Part shown: positions 8,673 to 36,621 of the stretch, one piece after another | Position numbering within the stretch: position 1 is the stretch's first letter | Layout of the letters: each line of letters starts with the position of its first letter | DNA from: a virus | Lineage: Duplodnaviria; Heunggongvirae; Uroviricota; Caudoviricetes | Virus record (IMG/VR): IMGVR_UViG_3300044557_000292 | Coordinates: 1 to 64,000 of that record | Direction: 5' to 3' (one strand) | Length of the DNA: 64,000 nucleotides | Notes under the pieces: generated by a model | What the model was told of the DNA's origin: nothing | What the model saw: only the letters and a program-made list of their open reading frames with translations | The model's database searches: none | Program-made: the position numbers and the translations under genes

Positions 8673-9449
8673 TTATAAGGACCCATCAACGAGATCGTCC
8701 ATGGCCGTTCTGAACCCAAGCTCCCTCGCCCTATCAACTATTTTAACCCCATCAAGATGCATGACCGTCACCCTTCCCCTGAGATCATACGGAACAGCAG
8801 ACGCAATATCATTAAGGCCAGCGTGGGCTGGATTCTCCTGGATGGACGCGTCTGCGTACAACACCTTCACATGCTCGGGTTTCACGGTATTAATCACCAG
8901 CTTGATTCCAATCGTGTCAGATGTGTCACCTGACCAATAGATAATCCACTCGGGTCGGTCAAGTGATATGCTGTACGAGGACATGCCGGTGACGTGATTC
9001 ACCCTATCGTACCTGACCGTTAGCAACGGGTCCCTGAACTCTCCCCTGTATGACCCCTCGGCTACCGGCGATACGTCATAGAATGATTCCGGGATCCCCT
9101 GGAGTGATAGGAATTCTCTAATCAATCCGTTCAAAGATTTTGGAATGACGAGTAGAGGTTTGAGATTCCTCTCGTGGTGAAGCCAACCAATGAGAGATCC
9201 CAGGCTGCCCACGTGATCCGCGTGCATGCGCGTGATCAGTATGGCTACAGCTGGAGCTTCCCTGAACTCTCCAAGCGTCAACAGTCTATCGAACACGCTT
9301 GGGCCGCAGTCGATCAGGATCATACTCCCGTCATGCTCGATCATGAACGCAGAGTTGCTACCCAGCTCGGGATGGAATCCAGACCCGCACCCAAGGAATC
9401 GTAACAGTCCACCGGGAGCGCTTTCCCGTACCACGTGATCAACCATCAT
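8673..9449 (-). CDS. Metallo-beta-lactamase-fold hydrolase, RNase Z-like
   Basis: FLGCGSG, LIDCG, ITRMHADHVGSL (HxHxDH with first H replaced by R), VNHV, WSGDT, AH and MHLD motifs. Confidence 0.85.
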   Translation of the reverse strand: MMVDHVVRESAPGGLLRFLGCGSGFHPELGSNSAFMIEHDGSMILIDCGPSVFDRLLTLGEFREAPAVAILITRMHADHVGSLGSLIGWLHHERNLKPLLVIPKSLNGLIREFLSLQGIPESFYDVSPVAEGSYRGEFRDPLLTVRYDRVNHVTGMSSYSISLDRPEWIIYWSGDTSDTIGIKLVINTVKPEHVKVLYADASIQENPAHAGLNDIASAVPYDLRGRVTVMHLDGVKIVDRARELGFRTAMDDLVDGSL

Positions 9450-12861: not shown

Positions 12862-13932
12862 TCATCTAATTCCTGCCATTCCGGTAGTTTGCTCTATCCT
12901 ACCAACGATGTCATCAATGGCCTTATTAGAATCGTTGATCGACTCCACGTCAACAGAGTATCTTGACAGGCTGTCATCAAGTGATTTCAGACGATTCCTC
13001 AGCGCCCGGACCCTCTCGTACAGGTCATGATCAACGTCAAGATCTTCATTCTCAATGAGCTTGAACTCACGGGCAGTACTTGCAATCTTATCAGCGATAT
13101 CAGACCCGATACTGACCCCGAGGACATCTGTCTTCATGATTATCGTCCTCGTCAGCTCACGAACCTCAGATATGGCAGACGTCATGTCAATGATCTTACC
13201 AAGCTTTGACTTCGATAGGGTGCCCGGGTGGGCGGCCTCATCAGTCATGATTCCGCCAAGATGATTCAGTATCGATCTCCTCATCTTCTCGTCAAGGTGA
13301 AGCGCATTATCGTCATAAGCTATGAAGATCTTACGGCCAAGTAGTACCGCACCTGGATTCTCGAATATATCTTCACCCTGAGCAGCGCTATCGAGACTAA
13401 GCACTGACGGTATGCTTATTGGGCATGCATTCTTGAATGTCTGCTCACTCCCGTACCCAATTCCAATGATGACTGGCACGCCATTGATATTCAAGTCTAG
13501 CATGGTTGGCGTCATCATTGATCTTATCCTGCCATTATAGGGACGGGGGACAATCATCATATGGGAAATTGGGATAATAGGAATCATGAGTAACCATGAG
13601 AAAGAACCGGTATCAATTCCAAGCATACTGAGCGTAAGTGTACTAGCAGTTATTATTGCTGTATAGACGAACGGGATGGAGAATAAGATCGCGTGTGAGA
13701 AGTACTGGTGCCTGGAAAAGAACCTGTACCATCCGTGAGAACAAACCCTCCTCACCCTCTGCGTCCAGGGTACACGGTACCGTTCCTGCAGACCCTTTAT
13801 GAATCGAGTGACCCTCAGCCTTCCAGTAATCTTAACGCGCTCGCTCTTCACGCAATCCTCAAGGAAGCCGTTCCTAATTGCGGAGACATCGGTTATCGTT
13901 ATTCTTTTACTCATGGACAATCTCCTTCTCAC
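12862..13932 (-). CDS. Hypothetical membrane protein with C-terminal coiled coil
   Basis: 356 aa, TM hairpin, heptad-rich C-terminus. Confidence 0.7.
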   Translation of the reverse strand: MRRRLSMSKRITITDVSAIRNGFLEDCVKSERVKITGRLRVTRFIKGLQERYRVPWTQRVRRVCSHGWYRFFSRHQYFSHAILFSIPFVYTAIITASTLTLSMLGIDTGSFSWLLMIPIIPISHMMIVPRPYNGRIRSMMTPTMLDLNINGVPVIIGIGYGSEQTFKNACPISIPSVLSLDSAAQGEDIFENPGAVLLGRKIFIAYDDNALHLDEKMRRSILNHLGGIMTDEAAHPGTLSKSKLGKIIDMTSAISEVRELTRTIIMKTDVLGVSIGSDIADKIASTAREFKLIENEDLDVDHDLYERVRALRNRLKSLDDSLSRYSVDVESINDSNKAIDDIVGRIEQTTGMAGIR

Positions 13933-15398
13933 GATATGACTTTGCGTAGACGATCAATAAGATCATTAATAGAACTATGATCAATCACCGGCTCTAACTC
14001 TTCCCATAATGGGTCATCGTCCTTGGCTTGCCTCAGTTTCTTGGGGATCATCCCCCTGAACTCATCGGGAACCTGTAATCCTTCCTCATGGGCTTCGCAC
14101 ACGATGCTCGCGATCAAACGGAGCCTTTCATTACCGCCAATTCTATCAACCAGTGTCTTACCGGGAGTGGTCGATTGAACGTCAACACCGAGGGCTTGCA
14201 CCCATCTTCGCCTCTCCTTATAGACGCCCGGCTTCATCCTAGCGTGCTGCGGGCTCAGTGACTCCACCCTGCGAGTCAATCTAGACTCAGGACCAAGATC
14301 AGGACGCTTCTTAAGAGTATACTCGATGCCCGCATTCCTCTTGACCGGGTCGGTAATGTTCGCAAGTAACTGAGGGATGGTAGACTCCGGCTCCCTCTTA
14401 ATGAGGAATCTTATCCCGTCCTCATGCATGCCCAAGGCAATCTTCAGAGCCCGGTCACCATGCACCCTACGGTAATCGCATGGGTCCTTACCGTCCGGGA
14501 CGATGCAGACATCGATTCTCTCATTCGGGAACCTCATGATGGCAGATCTGGCTCCCCTTAGACCAGCCTCGTCGTCATCAAGGCATAGGATGATCCTCCC
14601 GTGATCGGTCATCAACTGCTTGCACTGGTCCAACTGGCGCTCGTAGAAATCAGTCATCCCCGCGATGGAAGCGGTGTTCCTGACACCAGCATAAGAGCAG
14701 GCGAGGGCGTCAAGCTGGCCCTCCACTAGGATCACCTCGTCCTTCCTACGGATGAACGGTTTGGATTCGTCAAGGAGGAACATGGGATTCTCATAGGGCT
14801 CCGTGAACCTTCCACTAGAATCTCGTCTTGGGACCATGTATGACGGAGGCCTTGATCGCACGTACTTCAGACCTGAGGTCATGGTGACCGTTGCATTACC
14901 GATCTTCGCGATCTTATGACCGCCAGTCTTATCAGCATATGACCTCGCGTAATAAGCGGTCACGTCATTACCATCCATGACGGCAATGGTGAGCCGGTCA
15001 TGGGCGAAGACCTGGAGCGCAGTTCCATCCGCCTTAAGATCTGCCAGGCCAGACTCAAGCAAATCTAAATCACTGCAACCAGCATTCTTCAACTGTCTGA
15101 GAGCATCATTCCTCGAGGATATCCACCCGAGATGTGGATCACTCAGCGGAATCTTCCTACGCCTCACGTCAACAACCGCTGGATGATCATCGGGAAGCCG
15201 GGTCAGGTTATCGTGGAAGATCTTATTGGCCGTGTTGAGGATGAACAACTCACGATCCTTGTCAACATGAGTTGCAATCGCAAGACTCCTATCCTTGAAC
15301 CTACAGTTCGCGGGGTTACTGCACCTGCGAATCTTGCCATCGGGGCTTACATGCACGGGTTTGGCCTTACCCGATCCCCATATTCTTGAATCTGCCAT
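13929..15398 (-). CDS. DnaG-like TOPRIM-domain primase with atypical N-terminus
   Basis: ILVEGQLDALAC, TASIAG, IILCLDDDEAG and GKDPCDY are DnaG TOPRIM motifs; no canonical CHC2 zinc finger. Confidence 0.8.
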   Translation of the reverse strand: MADSRIWGSGKAKPVHVSPDGKIRRCSNPANCRFKDRSLAIATHVDKDRELFILNTANKIFHDNLTRLPDDHPAVVDVRRRKIPLSDPHLGWISSRNDALRQLKNAGCSDLDLLESGLADLKADGTALQVFAHDRLTIAVMDGNDVTAYYARSYADKTGGHKIAKIGNATVTMTSGLKYVRSRPPSYMVPRRDSSGRFTEPYENPMFLLDESKPFIRRKDEVILVEGQLDALACSYAGVRNTASIAGMTDFYERQLDQCKQLMTDHGRIILCLDDDEAGLRGARSAIMRFPNERIDVCIVPDGKDPCDYRRVHGDRALKIALGMHEDGIRFLIKREPESTIPQLLANITDPVKRNAGIEYTLKKRPDLGPESRLTRRVESLSPQHARMKPGVYKERRRWVQALGVDVQSTTPGKTLVDRIGGNERLRLIASIVCEAHEEGLQVPDEFRGMIPKKLRQAKDDDPLWEELEPVIDHSSINDLIDRLRKVIS

Positions 15399-15598
15399 CG
15401 TATCTAATCCTAACCCACCAGTCTGATTACGGTACTTCCGTTCCGGACAATATGATCATATCACAAGAATATAGACCGTTATCAATGGGATAACCGTTAC
15501 ATGATTATAGTGCATCGAGAAGGGATCGCAATGACAACCGTAACCAAGATCTAATAAGATTAAGGCGCGTTTTAGGGGCTTTTAGCCGGTTTTACGAG

Positions 15599-15660
15599 AA
15601 GGGCTAGATTTCAACGCTGGCCGTGTAACACGGGGAAGCATATCCTAGGATTATAGGGTC
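15599..15660 (+). repeat. Dispersed repeat family B, copy 2
   Basis: AAGGGCTAGATTTCAACGCTGGCCGTGTAACACGGGGAAGCATATCCTAGGATTATAGGGTC. Confidence 0.95.
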
Positions 15661-16088
15661 TTCCAGCATAGACCCTATAAGTCCTCACCCCTAAGCTTGA
15701 AGCACCCTGACCTCACCCCCTTCACTTCCACTCATTCATGGTGTGATCAGCAGGCCACTGTCCGGCGTGGGCTAGCCTTCCACTGATGATCTTGGTGGTC
15801 TCGTCCGCAGCGCGAACCTCAGACGCCATTGCTGCACCCCGAGTCCTCACCATTGAAGCGTGGACTAATCGCGCTGGCCGGCTACTCTGCCCATGGAGTA
15901 GAGATCCTCGTGGAGTTCCCTCCGGAAGATGATGCTGGTGATTCCATTGATCCATGATTCCTCATGAGACATCCTCCCGTCAACCCGTATCATGATTGCA
16001 AGATTCATCTCGACAAAGGTCCCAAATGGGACACGTCGCGTGACCCCGAGTTTACAGGAGTTAATGCAGGATTGACTGGGATTGCGGA

Positions 16089-16177
16089 GGATGCGTTCTA
16101 ACACACCATACCCACGCGTGAGTAAAAAAACACGCGCCGCGACGGGTCGAGCGTCTAGGGGGTCATGGAATGCGCCT
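16089..16177 (+). repeat. Dispersed repeat family A, copy 2
   Basis: GGATGCGTTCTAAC...GTGAGTAAAAAAACACGCGCC...GTCGAGCGTCTAG...TGGAATGCGCCT. Confidence 0.9.
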
Positions 16178-16303
16178 GGGGCGTGCTTGGGGCCACCCCA
16201 CGGGATCGCCGCGTGATGAGCATTAACTCGCGTCACCACCCACTCCCGAATGGTAATCGCCCCGTGCCAGCTTGGCGATTATCCTATACTAAGGTTATTA
16301 TCA

Positions 16304-16567
16304 TCAAGATTCAAGCTCATAGTGATCGGGGTAGAATGACTCGCCCTGCAGCTCGCGGACGCACTTGTTAAGCGCGTTAACGAGCGACTTACCGCCGCGT
16401 GGGTTGAGCGAGATGCTGTGATTCCAACTGTTACCGCATTCGAGGGTGTAATGGAAGTACTCGGTAAGCTCCTGTACGGTGCCCGTTTGCTTTGAGACGC
16501 GGCCGCGGTGCATCTTGATGATCGTGTACGTTCTCGCGGAGGACTTTGACTTTGCCGTTACACTCAT
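16304..16567 (-). CDS. Small hypothetical phage-type protein
   Basis: 87 aa with RBS and its own promoter (16607-16636). Confidence 0.75.
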   Translation of the reverse strand: MSVTAKSKSSARTYTIIKMHRGRVSKQTGTVQELTEYFHYTLECGNSWNHSISLNPRGGKSLVNALNKCVRELQGESFYPDHYELES

Positions 16568-16606
16568 GATGAATCCTATTCCTTGTCACGTTTTGTTGAC
16601 TTGATT

Positions 16607-16636
16607 ATTATAACCCGGATAAGATCGCGACACGCC
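16607..16636 (-). promoter_or_regulatory. GGCGTGTC-N14-GTTATAAT promoter
   Basis: Recurrent motif upstream of small genes. Confidence 0.7.
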
Positions 16637-16644
16637 AATGATGG

Positions 16645-16950
16645 TCATGAAGAAGCAGTGAACCCTAATCCCCCCCCCGATCCATTCTCCTTGAGCTGAC
16701 TATAATAGTCGATCAGTGGTAGACTCTCATCTCTAGGATCATCAATGCTAACCAGCCATCCATCTCTTACAGTCGCCAGCCCATCATGATCACCACTGTA
16801 ATCACCAGTCTCAGGATCATTACCTCCGAAGATCTCAAATTGGAAGCTAACGTTGTCATCCCTGACAGCATCACCGATCTTGTAGTTACGCAAGACCCGG
16901 CCGAACGCCTTCGCCGCCCTCGCGACCCTGCTCATCATGCAACTCGTCAA
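16645..16950 (-). CDS. Hypothetical protein (start uncertain)
   Basis: Acidic ORF, probably 5'-truncated or frameshifted. Confidence 0.45.
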   Translation of the reverse strand: MTSCMMSRVARAAKAFGRVLRNYKIGDAVRDDNVSFQFEIFGGNDPETGDYSGDHDGLATVRDGWLVSIDDPRDESLPLIDYYSQLKENGSGGGLGFTASS

Positions 16951-17082
16951 ACGTGCCCATTACTAAACGCTCCTTATCAGGTATGGAATTTTGCTCATGA
17001 TTGATCATATCACGAGATCTTCCATGGGTGGTTAGAACGTGGTGAGGACGCGTCAAGCAATCTTGAAGGTGAGTCTTCCGAG

Positions 17083-17144
17083 AAGGGCTAGATTTCAACG
17101 CTGGCCGTGTAACACGGGGAAGCATATCCTAGGATTATAGGGTC
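17083..17144 (+). repeat. Dispersed repeat family B, copy 3
   Basis: Identical to copy 2 over 62 bp; its 3' extension TACGGTGGAAGTTCC is shared with copy 5. Confidence 0.95.
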
Positions 17145-17418
17145 TACGGTGGAAGTTCCATGCCACGTCGTGCCCAGGGGGTCACCACATCCCGCCCCCT
17201 CATCTCCTACTAGCACAGTCAATCAGTCCAATCCTGCGGGCAACCTGACCCAGCATAGGCCACCTCCCATGGGAATCCGTCCATCACCCCCGTCATGTGA
17301 TCATGGTCTCAACTCCTGGAGGACAGCGTGCTCACTACCGTAGACCCTGGGTTCATAGGACGTCCTGCTGACGCTTGACCTGTAGTCTAGGGATCGTGGG
17401 CGACCCCCACATGACGAC

Positions 17419-17722
17419 ATGCTTGATCCTGAGACGGATCTGGCGGATGGACTGGAGCGCTTCTTCCCCGTCGTACTGGACAAGACCGTCTATCAGAATG
17501 CGGATGCGATTGCTAGACAACTCGACGCCATAGGCGTCGGAGAGGTCAATCTGTTCGGCATTGACACCGACATTTGTGTTCTGCAGAACGCCGCCCGCTT
17601 GTTCGATCTCGGGTACCGCGTGAACGTGCTCTATGACTTGTGCGCCACCAATGCTGGCTTCGCGATCCATTCAGCAATGCTCACAGTGCTTCAGCGCACC
17701 GTCGGCCGCAAGCAGGTGAAGA
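17419..17722 (+). pseudogene. C-terminal fragment of an isochorismatase/cysteine-hydrolase family gene
   Basis: VLDKTVY...EVNLFGIDTDICVLQNAARLFDLGYRVNVLYDLCAT; lacks the N-terminal LLVID catalytic Asp; runs into a CRISPR repeat. Confidence 0.8.
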
Positions 17723-17749
17723 GGTTCAACCCCGCTACGCGGGGAATGC
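17723..17749 (-). CRISPR. Solitary degenerate CRISPR repeat
   Basis: GGTTCAACCCCGCTACGCGGGGAATGC has 3 differences from the array repeat, with the stem intact. Confidence 0.9.
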
Positions 17750-17932
17750 CCTAGGAACGTTGAGACCACGTTAACGAGGGTTGAGTACAACCACGATCCC
17801 CGTTAACGCAGGCCAGCATCACGAACCATCGAAAGAACCCCTATGGGACCCATCACGCTATTAAAATATCAAGCGTCAGTACCATCGCATGATTAAGAAT
17901 CATCTAGAATGATAATGCGCTAGGAACGCGGA
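17750..17932 (-). promoter_or_regulatory. Paralogous copy of the CRISPR leader
   Basis: Shares CTAGGAACGTTGA, CCACGTTAACGA, GACCCATCACGCTATTAAAATATCAAGCG and ATAATGC.CTAGGAACGCGGA with 1147-1312. Confidence 0.85.
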
Positions 17933-18021
17933 GGATGCGTTCTAACGCACCGTAACACAGGTGAGTAAAAAAAACACATGCTATGATAGATCGAGCGTCT
18001 AAGGCATCATAGAACACGTCC
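17933..18021 (+). repeat. Dispersed repeat family A, copy 3
   Basis: Same consensus as copy 1. Confidence 0.9.
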
Positions 18022-18463
18022 TAATCCCATGTGGAGCCATATCCTCACGGAACGAATGCGAGATTACCGATTCCTACCAAAACCATATCATTTGATGGAG
18101 ATGAATCCTATAAATGTGAAGGAACTGTGAATAATCTTATTGTTTTAATGAGTTCCTCACCTTTTGAAGATGACTGGTACCTTAGATTCCATCATGTCAA
18201 CCGGCGTGATGGGACATCTTGTCCTACAGATGATCTGAACGTTATCTGATGGGGAGTGGAGCTGTGCTCCCACCCATTGATATGGAGATTCACAGCATCA
18301 GTTAAGATAAAGACTCCCACGAGTTAGGGTGACGGATCGCAATGGAAGCATGACGCCCTGTTAATAGTGGCCACGTGGGCCTACCAGTCCCCAACATTAG
18401 GGGTTAAGCAGTGTGGAATCATCTTCATCGCCTCCCGTCGCTAGTACGATAAGGAATAGATAA

Positions 18464-21145
18464 TTGAAACAAGAATCAAGTATGGGAGACTCCTCAGATT
18501 CCTCAATGAGCGGTACCCGGGAGGATCTTAACGGGAATACTGTCGATTCCACCTCTACACCAACGGTGAGTCCGGAGATGATCAAGCATTCTAATGACTG
18601 GATACGGAATCATCCCAGTGTCCGCAACAAGCACCTGACCCTGAGGAAGATGGATAAGATGCCGTCTTTGAAGATGAGCCCATCAATGGGACACCGTGCT
18701 AGGTGCATTGGTGATAGCATCGCGCTCATGTTGTCCCCGGGAGATTCCGCTAGCCGGTACGCGATCATGAAGAGTCTGGGTCGCGATAACCTCACTGGTG
18801 AACAGCTGATCCTGCATAACGGTAAGAAGTGGATGAGACCGGAGGGAGCTGGTCGGCCGAAGTTCGATCATATCTTCGCCGCGTGGAAGGGGTGGCTTCC
18901 AGTACCCGGGGGGCTGCAACTCCTATCTGAAAGCGTGAATGGTCTTAAGTCTGACATGGATCCATTCCAGTTCAACAGAGACATGTACATGCTTAACGAG
19001 AGGGCTAGCAGTGGCTTCATCTCTCTAAGCGGCTACAGGTCAGTGGGCGGGCTATCATACCAGACCCTCAGTATAGCCAACCAGACGCTTATTGATGATT
19101 ACATCAAGTACGCGATCGAGCATTACTACGAGCCGTACGACTCCTACGGTCTTGGAATCCTCTTCGAGAACGCAACCGGGTATGAGTACGATCTGGAGAC
19201 GCCTGGGAGACGCGTTGGGTCTCAGAGGGATCTCATTGACGTGATGCAGAGGATAGAGGATGCGTTGGTGGCTCCATCCTCGCCTCTTTCACGGTCAACG
19301 TCAGCCGACCAGCAGGGGAATGACCCGTCTGTGTACGCTGGATCGCCTATGATGGATGACCTCACCGTGTACTCGTACTCACGGAGGAAGAATCTCCTAC
19401 CAGCGTCCTCACTGTACAAGATCATCAACGCGGCCATGAGTAGGGTCAATTGCGCGGGTGCAGCTGGTCTTGAATCACTGCCGGATGATATGCTTCTTAA
19501 GATCTTCGTTAGCGTCATCAAGGATGGAGCTGATAGCGATAATGAGAACAATGAGTGGAAGAGCTATCAGCAGTACGGATCATCATTCAAGACTCTTATA
19601 GACGGGAGCCGGGTGAGCACTTCGCCAATCATTCCGTCCAAAGACTGTCTTGAAATGCTACTATACCTGGTTGATGTGGGGATCATAACAAGCATTGGAG
19701 AATGGAATGAGGTCGTTGGGTTCATCGCGAGGTTCCCCGTTAAGAAGGCCGGTCAGAAGACGGAATCTAATGGAGCTAGCAGCGTGAGGAAGGGAGACCT
19801 CATCGAATTCACATTAAAACTGGTCTCGTCCTCCGGGTCTGTTGATAATGCTCTTGATGACTTCAAGAATATGGGCTCGGTGACCAGGGGTCTTATACAG
19901 TCCTTCATCAGTAGTCATGACGTGGTCAGTAACTATGATCTTCATGCGAACCCGGCGTCGAGCAGCCAGTCTATTCAGAGCTCATCATTCATCAACGCTC
20001 TTAGGGACACGTGGAGGAATGCTGCCGGGCATGGGCTTTTGGGAGGCATCACCTCAAGTGATGAGAACCCGTATGATTATAATAGGATTAGGATCGGGTA
20101 CGTTGCGGGCACGATTGGAGATGAGGATCTACGCTCGATATTCGAAGAGTACTCGCTTGCCGTAGCGGCAACATCAAATCATGTTGCCGGTTTCAATACT
20201 GTCATCAGGAAGCTGGGAGACTGGCCGTTCAGGAATGTGGGAGATCTTATCCGTAGGGTTGAGGCGGTGATGGACGATAATCCCAAGGGACTTAGCACTG
20301 AGAATAAGAGAGGGGTGTCGATGCTCGTGTCGATCGTGTGCAAGCATTATGATTGGCCTGAGTTCCACGTGGAGAGCTTCGCTAGGAGGAAGATGAGGGA
20401 GACCATCGAGTCCTGGAAGAGGGATAACCCGGAGTACGCGCTCCTTGTTGACCCGTATGAGTCCTATTATGATGAGCACTGCGCGGGTAAGAAGAGGAAT
20501 CGCATCAGGTCAACGCCTAAGATTCTTGAGTACATTGACGAGGCGAAAGCGTCGCCTCTCAAAATGGGTTCAAGGCCGGTGGACACTGAGATGAGGATCG
20601 TGAAGCGCATGGCTGATAACGCTACCGGCGATACGACCGGCGCGGTAAGTACGGACAGATCTCGTAGGATCGATAGTGGCATCCTGTTCTTCAAGGGGGA
20701 GATCATAGGTAATAGGGATATTGCGAATCTTATCGTTGAGAACGGATGGGCTTACAGGGACGTCCTCGTGGATACGCAGGCTGTCATTGACGAGCTCCCG
20801 CCTACCGGAGATTCCTATGGGCTGTCTAAATTGTCAACCGTCTTGAAGCCAGACGGTGAGTATGACATAAGACTCCTTGAGGAGGGTATGCTTAAGGACC
20901 CGGGATCTACTATCGATAATGCGTTATGGGACATGTATTATAAGTCAGATGCCGCGGGTCAGTCTAGATATTCGTTGACCGGGCAGATGAGGACTCTTGT
21001 CTGCCTGCTCGGAGTACTAGCTAACGAGCATCACGGGACGACAGTTCGTCTTAACGCGCTATGGGAGCTTCTCGCCGGGGGAGTCCTTAACATGAGGGAG
21101 TTCAATGAGGTCATGGAGGAATCAACTGCTGAACTTGAAGCATAA
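18464..21145 (+). CDS. Large hypothetical protein; C-terminal domain paralogous to the next gene
   Basis: 893-aa ORF with AAGGAA RBS. Confidence 0.85.
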   Translation: MKQESSMGDSSDSSMSGTREDLNGNTVDSTSTPTVSPEMIKHSNDWIRNHPSVRNKHLTLRKMDKMPSLKMSPSMGHRARCIGDSIALMLSPGDSASRYAIMKSLGRDNLTGEQLILHNGKKWMRPEGAGRPKFDHIFAAWKGWLPVPGGLQLLSESVNGLKSDMDPFQFNRDMYMLNERASSGFISLSGYRSVGGLSYQTLSIANQTLIDDYIKYAIEHYYEPYDSYGLGILFENATGYEYDLETPGRRVGSQRDLIDVMQRIEDALVAPSSPLSRSTSADQQGNDPSVYAGSPMMDDLTVYSYSRRKNLLPASSLYKIINAAMSRVNCAGAAGLESLPDDMLLKIFVSVIKDGADSDNENNEWKSYQQYGSSFKTLIDGSRVSTSPIIPSKDCLEMLLYLVDVGIITSIGEWNEVVGFIARFPVKKAGQKTESNGASSVRKGDLIEFTLKLVSSSGSVDNALDDFKNMGSVTRGLIQSFISSHDVVSNYDLHANPASSSQSIQSSSFINALRDTWRNAAGHGLLGGITSSDENPYDYNRIRIGYVAGTIGDEDLRSIFEEYSLAVAATSNHVAGFNTVIRKLGDWPFRNVGDLIRRVEAVMDDNPKGLSTENKRGVSMLVSIVCKHYDWPEFHVESFARRKMRETIESWKRDNPEYALLVDPYESYYDEHCAGKKRNRIRSTPKILEYIDEAKASPLKMGSRPVDTEMRIVKRMADNATGDTTGAVSTDRSRRIDSGILFFKGEIIGNRDIANLIVENGWAYRDVLVDTQAVIDELPPTGDSYGLSKLSTVLKPDGEYDIRLLEEGMLKDPGSTIDNALWDMYYKSDAAGQSRYSLTGQMRTLVCLLGVLANEHHGTTVRLNALWELLAGGVLNMREFNEVMEESTAELEA

Positions 21146-22670: not shown

Positions 22671-23528
22671 TCAGATGAATGCTCCTATGATCTTCCCGAA
22701 CGGTTCGGCATCCACGCTAGCTCCGCCCACAAGTACCCCACTCACGCTCGGGATGTCCGCGATCTTGTCCGCATTGTCTTCATTCACGGATCCACCGTAC
22801 AGTACTGGAATCCTCCCAGCCCCATGGAATTGGGTGACGTGATGGCGGATCCTGCTCACCATGCGGTCAATCTCATCCACGGTGGGCACGTTACCAGTAC
22901 CAATCGCCCATACGGGCTCGTACGCGATCACAATCCTGGCTGTCTCGTATGGGTCAAGGTCAGAGAGGACAGACAATTGGCCAGTAACTGACGCCCACGA
23001 CTCATCATCGTACGAAGATGGACTCCTCAACTCCGTGGATGCGGTGAGACTATTCTGGTCAGTAGCGTCATGATCCTCAGCGTTATCACCAACGCACAGG
23101 ATTGGCGTCATGCCGGCATCAAGAATCGTGCGTAGCTTACGACGGATGCACGCATCGTCCTCATGGTGGTAACGTTTGCGCTCACTGTGGCCAACGAGCA
23201 CGTACTTGCAGCCAAGGGCTGCGAGCATGGACGCGGACACGTCACCCGTGTACGCCCCGCCCTGCACGTCGGATACGGTCTGCGCTCCGATCGTGATTGG
23301 GATGTGATGCTTACCAGCATACTGACAGACCGGGTGGATGGCCGTGAATGATGGAAGCACGATAACCTCAGCATTGTCGGCATCATCAGCATCCTTGAGC
23401 ACATGAGAGAGCTTGTGGATGAGCTCACGCCCCTCGTTATGGTCAATCTTCATCTTCCAGTTACCGATGACCAGACGTTTGTTTGAATCACGATTCCTGT
23501 TCATATGCGATTCCATCCTCTTGTTCAT
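22671..23528 (-). CDS. tpiA: Triosephosphate isomerase
   Basis: GNWKM, GAYTGDVS, VGHSER, IAYEPVWAIGTG, LYGGSV, GVLVGGAS. Confidence 0.97.
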   Translation of the reverse strand: MNKRMESHMNRNRDSNKRLVIGNWKMKIDHNEGRELIHKLSHVLKDADDADNAEVIVLPSFTAIHPVCQYAGKHHIPITIGAQTVSDVQGGAYTGDVSASMLAALGCKYVLVGHSERKRYHHEDDACIRRKLRTILDAGMTPILCVGDNAEDHDATDQNSLTASTELRSPSSYDDESWASVTGQLSVLSDLDPYETARIVIAYEPVWAIGTGNVPTVDEIDRMVSRIRHHVTQFHGAGRIPVLYGGSVNEDNADKIADIPSVSGVLVGGASVDAEPFGKIIGAFI

Positions 23529-23641
23529 CCTATTCTTGCATTCGGCTCATCCATAGTCCTGCGTGAGGAGTAGCCCCGATGGGGAAGTGGCATCATCGGT
23601 TGAAGCATCATCGTTATCAGTGGGGGCATTCCTCACAACCG

Positions 23642-24652
23642 TCAACTCGGATGGACATCAGATGTCCTCCGCTCAAGATCAAAGAATCTGATCATGGCCT
23701 CAACCTTATCAGCCATGGCCTTCGTGGGAGATTTGAGGAGCGAGCGCGGGTCATACAGCTTCCCGGCAATCACCCCGTCCTCACCGATACCGGTAAGACG
23801 ATTAGCCTGCTTGATGATCTCATGATAGAATACAAGCTGAAGCTCAGTGTTCACATTGATCTTCGTGACGCCGTTCACGATGGCCTTTATAATCTGGTCA
23901 TCGGGAATGCCAGACCCTCCGTGGAGTACGAGTGGCATGTCCAACCCATTCATGCCTAGGGCGTCTCTCAACTTGGACAGGTATTCGAAGTGAAGCCCAC
24001 CCCAATCCTTTGGATACGGCCCGTGAATGTTACCAATGCCAACAGCCATCATGTCTGGGCGCAGTGTGGCCATTCTGAGGACGTCCTCTATGGGCGAGGT
24101 CTCACCAGACCCGTACACGCCATCCTCACTGCCTCCAATCGTCCCCACCTCAACCTCAACACTCACACCGCGACTATGGGCTTCGAAGATAATCTCCCGA
24201 GACCGCGCCACGTTCTCCTCGATTGGAAGAGCGGATCCGTCGAACATGACAGAGGTGAACCCGGCATCAATGGCCTCAAGGCAGCTATCATAGTCAGCAT
24301 GATCCGCGTGCAGCACTGGGAACCAACCCTGCGGGACCTCACCGTTCTGCTTCTCGTACTCGATGAGGTCAACGATCATGTCATGGGCGAGCTTGTACCC
24401 TCCCATGTACTTGGCTGCCCCCATCGTTACCTGGAGGATCACGTCATGCGGACGACCCCTCTTCACTGATGCCGCCCCATCAATGATCGCGTGAGCCCAC
24501 TCCAGGTTGTTCACGTTGAACGCGCCGATCCCAATGGTTGCATTGTACGCCCTCCAGACCACTCCGCGCGATGGCTGGATAACCATGTGCTCGGTATCAT
24601 GGAGAGTAGTACTACTCTGCTTCTTGTCCTTCTCTATTATTGATGTCATCAC
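23642..24652 (-). CDS. fba: Class II fructose-1,6-bisphosphate aldolase
   Basis: IGAFNVNNLEW, LHADH, GFTSVMFDGS, SVEVEVGTIGG.ED, GIGNIHG, LVLHGGSG, KINVNTE, YDPR. Confidence 0.95.
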   Translation of the reverse strand: MMTSIIEKDKKQSSTTLHDTEHMVIQPSRGVVWRAYNATIGIGAFNVNNLEWAHAIIDGAASVKRGRPHDVILQVTMGAAKYMGGYKLAHDMIVDLIEYEKQNGEVPQGWFPVLHADHADYDSCLEAIDAGFTSVMFDGSALPIEENVARSREIIFEAHSRGVSVEVEVGTIGGSEDGVYGSGETSPIEDVLRMATLRPDMMAVGIGNIHGPYPKDWGGLHFEYLSKLRDALGMNGLDMPLVLHGGSGIPDDQIIKAIVNGVTKINVNTELQLVFYHEIIKQANRLTGIGEDGVIAGKLYDPRSLLKSPTKAMADKVEAMIRFFDLERRTSDVHPS

Positions 24653-35166: not shown

Positions 35167-36621
35167 CTAGCTTGCCTTAACCCCATCAGGACCATCATCA
35201 CGGTCATCAAAATCATACTTCCTGAGCGCTTCTGGAATGCTCACACCCTCCTCCACAAGCTCTTCGATGATTGTTCTACCGCTCATGCTAGCACTGTGGG
35301 CTATCCGCGCGGCAGTATCATATCCAAGGGTCGTGTTCAGGAATGTGGCCAGGGTGAGTGATGAGCCAGCGTACCTCCTGCCAACATCTTCACGTACGGT
35401 GAGCTCGTGCAGAGCCTTCCCTGACAGCATGATCATGCCGTGCTCAAGAACTGACTCCTCATCAAGCAGGCTATGGGCGATCACAGGCTCGAATGCGTTC
35501 AACTGGAGTTGGCCGGCCTGCGCGGCGTCCATGATCGTGTGATCTAGCCCGTTAACCGTGAACACGACCTGGTCAATAGACTCCATGATGACGGGGTTCA
35601 CCTTACCGGGCATGATTGATGAACCCGCCTGCACGGCCGGGAGTATGACCTCACCTAGTCCAGCCCTGGGGCCACTCGCGAGGAGTCTCATATCATCGGC
35701 GAGCTTCCTCAGGTGGGTGGCAATGACCCTCATCGCGTTAGAAGCGTCAATCATCACCCCCATGTCTGTCATGTCAGCAACTGGGTCAACCGATGGGGTC
35801 AATGCTAGGTTAGTGAGACCGGCTAGCCTCTTTACTGTTCCCTCGGCATACCCCGCCGGAGCGTTGATACCAGTGCCGACAGCCGTCCCACCTAGGGGTA
35901 TCGTCCTTAACTCCTCAACGACCCCAGCTACACGATGCTCGTCACCTTCCAGTTGACGGGCGTACGCGCTGAATATTCTCCCGTACGTGATTGGAACAGC
36001 GTCCTGCAACTGGGTGCGGCCAATCGTAACCGCGTTCTCGTGCCGCCCGGCTATCATATCGAGATCCTCCACCACGGTTGTGATGACACGCTCGAGGTCA
36101 TGGAGCTTCCACGCGAGCGCGATCCTGAGGGCGGTCGGGTACGTGTCATTCGTCGACTGGCTCATGTTCACGTCGTCAACTGGGCTGACCACCCCGTATG
36201 ATCCCCTAGGCCATCCCCCGTGCTCGAGGGCTAGGTTTGCTATCACCTCGTTCACGTTCATGTTCAGTGACGTTCCCGCCCCGCCCTGTAGAACGTCAAC
36301 TGGGAACTGGTCCATCCATCTGCGTCCATCAGAATCACGGTCACTCGTGATGGCCGACAGGCTCATGCAAGCCCATGCTATCAGATCATGCTTCCATCCA
36401 GGCATCCACCCCCGCAACAGGTTCTCCTCAACAGCGGCCAGCTTCACGAGCGCATAAGCCCTGATAAGCTCTGGGTGGGCTGATTCAGGGATGCTACTCA
36501 CGTGGAAGTTGTCTATCGCCCTCTGGGTCTGTGACCCCCAGTACGCGGTGTCTGGTATGCTCACAACGCTAATGCTGTCATGTTCTGTCCTCATGGGCTG
36601 CCCCTCCTTGAATAAACGCAC
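35167..36621 (-). CDS. aspA: Aspartate ammonia-lyase (fumarase/aspartase family)
   Basis: YWGSQTQRAIDNF, QGGAGTSLNMNVNEVIAN, SQSTNDTYPT, GRTQLQDAVP, GSSIMPGKVNPV, GQLQLNAFEP. Confidence 0.95.
   Translation of the reverse strand: MRLFKEGQPMRTEHDSISVVSIPDTAYWGSQTQRAIDNFHVSSIPESAHPELIRAYALVKLAAVEENLLRGWMPGWKHDLIAWACMSLSAITSDRDSDGRRWMDQFPVDVLQGGAGTSLNMNVNEVIANLALEHGGWPRGSYGVVSPVDDVNMSQSTNDTYPTALRIALAWKLHDLERVITTVVEDLDMIAGRHENAVTIGRTQLQDAVPITYGRIFSAYARQLEGDEHRVAGVVEELRTIPLGGTAVGTGINAPAGYAEGTVKRLAGLTNLALTPSVDPVADMTDMGVMIDASNAMRVIATHLRKLADDMRLLASGPRAGLGEVILPAVQAGSSIMPGKVNPVIMESIDQVVFTVNGLDHTIMDAAQAGQLQLNAFEPVIAHSLLDEESVLEHGMIMLSGKALHELTVREDVGRRYAGSSLTLATFLNTTLGYDTAARIAHSASMSGRTIIEELVEEGVSIPEALRKYDFDDRDDGPDGVKAS

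Follow-up and report, generated by a model that had tools for sequence, protein, structure and literature searches.

Introduction

Collapse of CRISPR arrays to one repeat is described in the accessible part of PMC8047081, where a leader like those of filled arrays is followed by one polymorphic repeat and, directly behind it, by flanking DNA that is not a spacer. The solitary repeat described here, which lies in a window of 64,000 nt taken from a larger element, has the same arrangement and differs in that it was found without a filled ancestor, its leader is mosaic and its flank is the end of a truncated gene. Phages and plasmids encode RNA anti-CRISPRs (Racrs) in the form of solitary repeat units (SRUs) (PMC10651486, as far as its available text goes). 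As in an SRU, a single array-like repeat lies behind a promoter-like region on a mobile element, and, in agreement with the sequence definition of SRUs, no partial repeat was found in the flanking 100 bp. Unlike SRUs, for which the available text gives a pattern of having no cas genes of their own, the locus has a full leader copy and a cognate cas operon on the same replicon. The SRU list of that paper could contain the locus; SRUFinder, in the same portion of the text, masks confident ORFs, whereas the solitary repeat lies inside a called ORF. Regulatory mini-arrays of the CreA, CreR and Cracr types (accessible parts of PMC9458426, 10.1101/2023.03.03.530964 and 10.1101/2024.10.29.618823) share with the locus an ectopic, slightly degenerate repeat, and usually lack the acquisition part of the leader; in contrast, the solitary unit keeps the leader part needed for acquisition, is without a second repeat and has no promoter match in the element. 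By gene content only, the nearest named replicon is the Bifidobacterium breve megaplasmid pMP7017 (accessible part of PMC10832533; NZ_KM406416.1), which is likewise large and carries type I-E cas genes, tRNAs and a tmRNA; the element studied here is twice its size, the Cas1 proteins are 38% identical, and pMP7017 has no isochorismatase match.

The solitary locus is a real feature of a known kind. It is best explained as a fourth array of the type I-E system that the element carries, now empty or collapsed and in decay, a reading to which we assign a probability of about 0.65 from sequence comparison, and an empty or collapsed array is most likely, ahead of an anti-CRISPR RNA or a gene capture. 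Coordinates of the features are given in Table 1.

Table 1. Features of the solitary repeat locus and of array A1, in window coordinates
Feature	Position	Strand	Remarks
Array A1	1-1146	minus	19 repeats in window, 24 in all across the circular junction
A1 leader with D5 copy (1292-1400)	1147-1400	minus	Paralogue of the right flank of the solitary unit
D9 dispersed intergenic repeat, left bracket of the locus	17074-17184	plus	nhmmer E = 3e-33; 12 copies on the element
Possible decayed N-terminal catalytic motif	17328-17360	plus	Not significant
3′ ~60% of an isochorismatase-family (cysteine hydrolase) gene	17410-17722	plus	PF00857; ~310 bp; first ~65 codons missing
Called ORF, 111 aa	17419-17754	plus	Repeat/leader junction supplies the last ~9 codons and the stop
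Type I-E CRISPR repeat, single	17723-17749	minus	27 nt, 6-bp stem intact
CRISPR leader copy	17750-17911	minus	~160 nt; paired palindromic motifs at 17768-17776 and 17801-17808
TGTACT	17784-17789	minus	Sits where the A1 leader has TATAAT
D5 dispersed palindromic repeat	17912-18021	plus	24 matches at ~22 loci; not CRISPR-specific

The element and its filled arrays

The window is part of one circular contig of 419,707 bp (G000), which has an 89-nt terminal overlap and is filed as a virus record. Within it, the solitary locus falls in the interval from a primase-like gene (13929–15398) to an 893-aa gene (18464–21145). ORFs of at least 90 amino acids were called (382), of which 336 were compared with Pfam and 44 with PHROGs; 15 near the contig end were in neither set. 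No capsid, portal or terminase families were found in the ORFs scanned against Pfam or PHROGs. The element encodes type II/IV secretion ATPases, TcpE, a replicase, DnaE and gyrase, together with 50 tRNA calls and a tmRNA, and a TcpF/VirB4-like ATPase fell below the cut-off. From these features we infer a conjugative megaplasmid-like element, the host of which is probably an actinobacterium. Its RecA family was found on many contigs of 340–630 kb (clusters P0177, P0178, P0189 and P0194), with RecA homologues at 79% and 67% on contigs of 350 kb and 491 kb, respectively, a distribution that suggests that giant plasmid-like elements form a wide family. Triosephosphate isomerase, aldolase and fumarase are among the core metabolic genes on the element; three stretches of the window (8673–9449, 22671–24652 and 35167–36621) hold core metabolic genes and a metallo-beta-lactamase-fold protein with a sub-threshold match to Apyc1/anti-Pycsar.

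A complete type I-E cas operon, including Cas1e and Cas2e, lies at approximately 244,540–253,508, about 180 kb from the solitary repeat. In addition to A1, the element has array A2, with 30 perfect repeats, and array A3, with 22 repeats plus a separated block, and each of A1, A2 and A3 ends in a homologous leader. All 75 array spacers are 35–36 nt long, giving a period of 62–63 nt with the 27-nt repeat. No phage protospacers for the spacers of A1, A2 and A3 were found in the phage collection, and self-targets of array spacers did not exceed chance. Two A1 spacers, at 837–857 and 1023–1043, overlap by 21–22 nt in opposite orientation and correspond to both strands of one target.

The junction in public sequencing runs

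The junction between the solitary repeat and the gene fragment was bridged, with at least 31 nt on each side, in four of seven public runs (X2, X11, X12 and X14), and is not an assembly artefact. X2 and X11, both possibly the source of this DNA, showed no difference over all 730 nt, X12 (dust metagenome) showed none over 17452–17899, and X14 had 4 differences in 730 nt. X13 extended only 25 nt past the junction, and X15 and X16 (metatranscriptome) did not bridge it; that X16, an RNA run, leaves the gene fragment uncovered carries no weight. The 730-nt locus is thus (near-)identical across bridging runs, in strains too close to separate selection from recent ancestry.

The original prediction had proposed looking for a full array at this place in relatives; among the listed pieces of the four bridging runs, which come from close strains, there was none. 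Comparison by eye found in X11, which may hold several strains, four array spacers with no counterpart among the 75 of G000. Arrays with a TAC loop in X11 (pieces with 0 differences) were set aside, as the counts look de-duplicated by place and conflict with the identity bands. An array on a similar leader in X16 was also rejected: by eye it runs into sequence resembling the distal flank of A3, and therefore is not the solitary locus.

The solitary repeat

The solitary repeat and the last A1 repeat in the window lie 16,603 bp apart, in agreement with the predicted distance of about 16.6 kb, and the solitary repeat differs from the A1 repeat at three positions, with the foreseen changes in the loop (AAT to TAC) and in AATAC (to AATGC) and an intact stem. 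Only two mismatches separate it from the A2/A3 repeat, and in shuffled controls (n = 3) the best repeat match still had 8. The repeat together with its right flank aligns to 1120–1399 at 79% identity over 299 nt (E = 9e-66); its second base at the leader junction is altered. No second repeat was found on the gene side, where the best match in 17150–17715 had 12 mismatches of 27; a repeat-profile scan gave no further match near the locus, and Rfam gave 0 matches in 14500–19000. Candidate remnants of a repeat, sought near 17400 and one period upstream of there, scored no better than chance.

The stem was predicted to form when the repeat was folded alone. The Cas6 hairpin was predicted to form with up to 20 nt of downstream sequence (0.87–0.94) and to be occluded with 35 nt (P about 0.01); occlusion was likewise predicted in 10 of 78 array repeats and with 4.6% of 500 random flanks, and counts weakly against Cas6 processing of the solitary repeat.

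These results bear on the proposal that the unit is a Racr, transcribed to give a repeat RNA that would act as a decoy for the type I-E Cascade of the host or of a competitor. Such a function, which the single repeat with its self-sufficient stem, downstream of a leader and on a mobile element, would fit, is distinctly unlikely. What weakens it is that the element has a complete I-E system of its own to which the repeat is cognate, and that a decoy would be expected to inhibit this very system. Among 401 sampled genomes, the repeat pattern gave single two-mismatch matches in 5 and arrays in none; therefore, the known cognate system is that of the element itself. Also opposed to a Racr are the predicted occlusion of the hairpin, the -10 position, which is without the element's TGTTATAAT motif, and the two small neighbour genes, in which no acr or aca family match was found. 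A lone repeat with a leader should not by itself be taken as a Racr.

The leader and the dispersed repeats

The element carries four homologous leaders, so that what had been called a second leader is the fourth copy. The claim of a duplicated leader held for the segment next to the repeat, which is CRISPR leader, and not for the segment beyond it, which is the D5 palindrome (Table 1). Over the proximal 76 nt, the solitary leader is 79% identical to that of A1, 79% to that of A2 and 86% to that of A3, while the leaders of A1–A3 are 87–88% identical among themselves; over the distal 77 nt, it is 90% identical to A1 and 68–73% to A2/A3. By these identities, the solitary leader is a mosaic that suggests exchange among leader copies, and in its proximal part it has diverged furthest of the four.

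At the -10 position, the TATAAT of A1 lies within the element's recurrent TGTTATAAT-type motif, whereas A2 has AATACT and A3 has GGTACT, and a promoter scan found no site at this position of the solitary leader. The degenerate box (TGTACT) had been put forward as a discriminating test; it decides nothing, because the filled arrays A2 and A3 also deviate from TATAAT there.

The solitary unit retains the motif at the leader junction and both palindromic arms, as would be expected if it were a live, unfilled array still able to take up spacers, and a solitary leader-adjacent repeat can be repopulated (accessible part of PMC8047081). A live array is nevertheless very unlikely, given the changed second repeat base at the junction, the divergence of the proximal leader and the finding of no spacer at the solitary leader among the listed pieces of the four bridging runs; one of these had a contig depth near 2,000, and the data are contigs, where rare variants drop out.

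D5 also follows the A1 leader, so that leader and D5 are linked at both A1 and the solitary locus. In 9 of 12 cases on the element, D5 was found downstream of D9 in the same orientation and within 1.5 kb; random placement gave a mean of 0.95 and a maximum of 8 in 5,000 trials, with regional clustering uncontrolled. D9/D5 pairs in the window start at 15590/16069, 17074/17912, 34827/35040, 52264/53542 and 63204/63509, and pairs also occur at 377–381 kb. Several D9–D5 brackets enclose apparent decayed gene pieces, and the replicase has two D9 copies upstream.

The isochorismatase gene fragment

As predicted, about 300 bp of the 3′ part of a cysteine-hydrolase gene adjoin the repeat, and the called ORF matches Pfam Isochorismatase (PF00857) with E = 5.6e-10. 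A profile built from 38 homologues aligned positions 65–164 of 168 at 17425–17721, and detected neither another copy nor the 5′ half of the gene on the element. The identical 111-aa protein is present on 10 contigs of the collection, and the closest homologues are proteins 56–59% identical. The closest full-length homologue, P0017 (59% identity), extends about 5 residues beyond the matched part; the repeat therefore sits at the natural C-terminus of the family. In the alignment, the ORF is without the N-terminal strand that carries the Asp, which we take to be the catalytic residue of the family, and does not correspond to an intact PF00857 enzyme. The look-alike of the catalytic motif upstream of the fragment gave p = 0.07 with the closest homologue, 0.10–0.16 combined over 13 homologues and 0.12 with an HMM; if this remnant is real, the gene would have decayed in place. 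P0001, a variant in another assembly, has a shifted frame near its end, which may reflect decay or sequencing error.

The fragment had been described as host-like and of GC-richer codon style. Its GC3 is 0.70, compared with 0.56 genome-wide and an average of 0.61 for window genes, and the claim of a richer style is weak: GC3 is as high in 7% of random 101-codon windows, reaches 0.70 or more in 4 of 46 window genes, and the codon-usage score is median. A foreign origin is unsupported because the GC3 is within the local range. P0017 matched one Aeromicrobium genome, the entry point of the sampling; at E = 1e-25, its subfamily was found in 0 of 400 other genomes of the class and 0 of 60 of the genus sampled, and the label host-like is unsupported. 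Named homologues include Corynebacterium and Bifidobacterium proteins. By this distribution, the fragment looks to derive from patchy accessory cargo and not from a core gene of the host.

That a crRNA-like or antisense RNA from the unit represses the isochorismatase gene or a cas gene, in the manner of CreA, CreR or Cracr, is highly improbable. A leader transcript would read the repeat and then the antisense strand of the gene, and type I-E Cracr arrays exist (accessible part of 10.1101/2024.10.29.618823), but such a guide would be without the second repeat, and the element has no intact gene copy to act on, nor was the subfamily found in the genomes sampled above. For the 35 nt after the repeat, the best seed-anchored run elsewhere in the element was 12 nt, inside ORFs, and 38 of the 75 array spacers equal or beat this run within the element. 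A regulatory guide, as originally proposed, therefore fell short both in its missing repeat and in a seed match no better, within the element, than those of ordinary spacers.

Further comparisons of the gene gave minor observations. The isochorismatase in G001 is different, with a nicotinamidase-like context. A methyltransferase-like gene follows the two closest metagenome homologues, and was rejected as a conserved partner (motif in 3 of 78 and 1 of 43 loci; PF02086 absent from G000). A homologue from Bifidobacterium sp. SO1 (P0021/P0174) likewise lacks part of the N-terminus, beginning at almost the same residue, and the orphan repeat at 388693 shares with the flank of the solitary repeat an 8-nt stretch, located just upstream of the 388693 repeat (G000:C1 388676–388712); both likenesses may be due to chance.

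Origin of the solitary unit

Among the three readings of the original prediction, a relic of an array fits best, the Racr is weakened and the guide fails two tests. The array reading draws on the homology of leader and repeat to the three filled arrays, the orientation, which is that of an array, the exact end of the repeat against the truncated gene tail, and the lack of a far repeat and of any spacer in the listed bridging contigs. The other orphan repeats on the element, its two interrupted arrays and the mosaic leader are in line with it. Like a collapsed or empty array, the unit has a homologous leader, one repeat at the leader junction and cognate cas genes. The preservation of the repeat stem and of both leader palindromes counts against this reading.

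An empty or collapsed array would have arisen by recombination. In one route, an array that once lay behind the gene would have collapsed from its first to its last repeat. In the other, a leader end would have been copied between two anchors, a pre-existing orphan repeat on the left and the D5 palindrome on the right; such orphan repeats are common on the element. The gene fragment would then be the former flank of the array and not a spacer. Antisense RNA, if made, would be incidental and would meet no intact target gene within the element. Neither a filled array nor an intact gene turned up at this flank in any relative among viral and metagenome contigs and the bridging runs, so that collapse is inferred and the two routes are indistinguishable. 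The fragment, the two neighbour genes, the leader motif and the repeat motif gave no match among viral contigs, and the leader motif gave none among metagenome contigs, in searches from which records very near G000 were possibly left out. On this reading of an empty or collapsed array, the locus is a modest example of arrays multiplying and decaying on one replicon.

Alternatively, Cas1–Cas2 may have treated a long DNA end, the 3′ end of the gene, like a spacer and joined it to the repeat, with the far repeat and the 5′ part of the gene lost or never formed. We regard this as unlikely. The join lies exactly at the 3′ end of the repeat, and the next base on the transcribed strand is T; T begins 46 of the 75 spacers and a pyrimidine begins 73 of 75. 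A pyrimidine here weakly fits integrase action, yet has about even odds by chance. Thus the first base agrees with the predicted aberrant integration, and the far-side repeat that it would leave is absent. Cas1e and Cas2e are encoded on the element, and off-target integration has been reported to spawn new arrays in E. coli (Nivala 2018, as cited in the accessible parts of 10.1101/148544 and PMC11788318); off-target integration of a spacer would not, however, be expected to copy a 160-nt leader. The insert would be at least 310 bp, compared with 35–36 nt in all 75 spacers, and every trailer end likewise sets an exact repeat end against flanking DNA. A literature search on long, gene-sized spacers returned no paper on this subject, as judged by title and the start of the abstract.

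Array A3 contains a gene-bearing stretch of approximately 937 bp between two perfect repeats, which is one further hint of integrase-driven joining of long DNA; the gene in this gap shares its strand with its neighbours, and may instead be a resident gene between two array blocks. It is doubtful that the Cas1–Cas2 of the element sometimes joins the leader-repeat end to long DNA, with the solitary locus and the 937-bp stretch with a pilin-like gene in A3 as two products of gene capture or rearrangement. If this were true, the CRISPR integrase would offer a natural path to capture or rearrangement on the kilobase scale, a result that would surprise specialists.

Other repeats on the element

With its RecA family on contigs of 350–630 kb and its orphan repeats around strong promoters, the element looks more rewarding than the solitary locus. 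Many other orphan or degenerate repeats were found on it, and two of its arrays are interrupted by DNA that is not a spacer. The gap that splits A3 (G000:C1 331225–332161) contains an intact ORF whose product has a prepilin-type N-terminus (weak GspJ match); the ORF lies in the direction of CRISPR transcription and has no paralogue on the element.

Degenerate repeats lie beside or bracket TGTTATAAT-type promoters at G000:C1 397235–397325, 264085–264170, 65495–65663, 64179–64220, 388693–388712 and 417890–417930. In the unit at 397 kb, the promoter itself takes the place of a spacer between two repeats one period apart, and 103 nt are common, at 78%, to this unit and that at 264 kb; the repeat at 65636 lies between the promoter and the ribosome-binding site. 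From this placement, control of plasmid genes by Cas6 or Cas1–Cas2 is possible. In a tRNA cluster (G000:C1 314272–314361), two identical repeats with broken stems, which have a TAC loop like that of the solitary repeat, are accompanied by one 36-nt spacer and a leader stub.

The trailer ends of A2 and A3 (G000:C1 242130–242518 and 331006–331100) carry the same series of degenerate repeats with different spacers. In the A2 trailer, one repeat is split by a D5 copy, and 44 bp separate the final repeat from the DnaE ORF. The A3 leader (G000:C1 ~333620–334030) is interrupted by a stopped reading frame, without a family match, that has a zinc-ribbon motif presumably resembling the C-terminus of TnpB.
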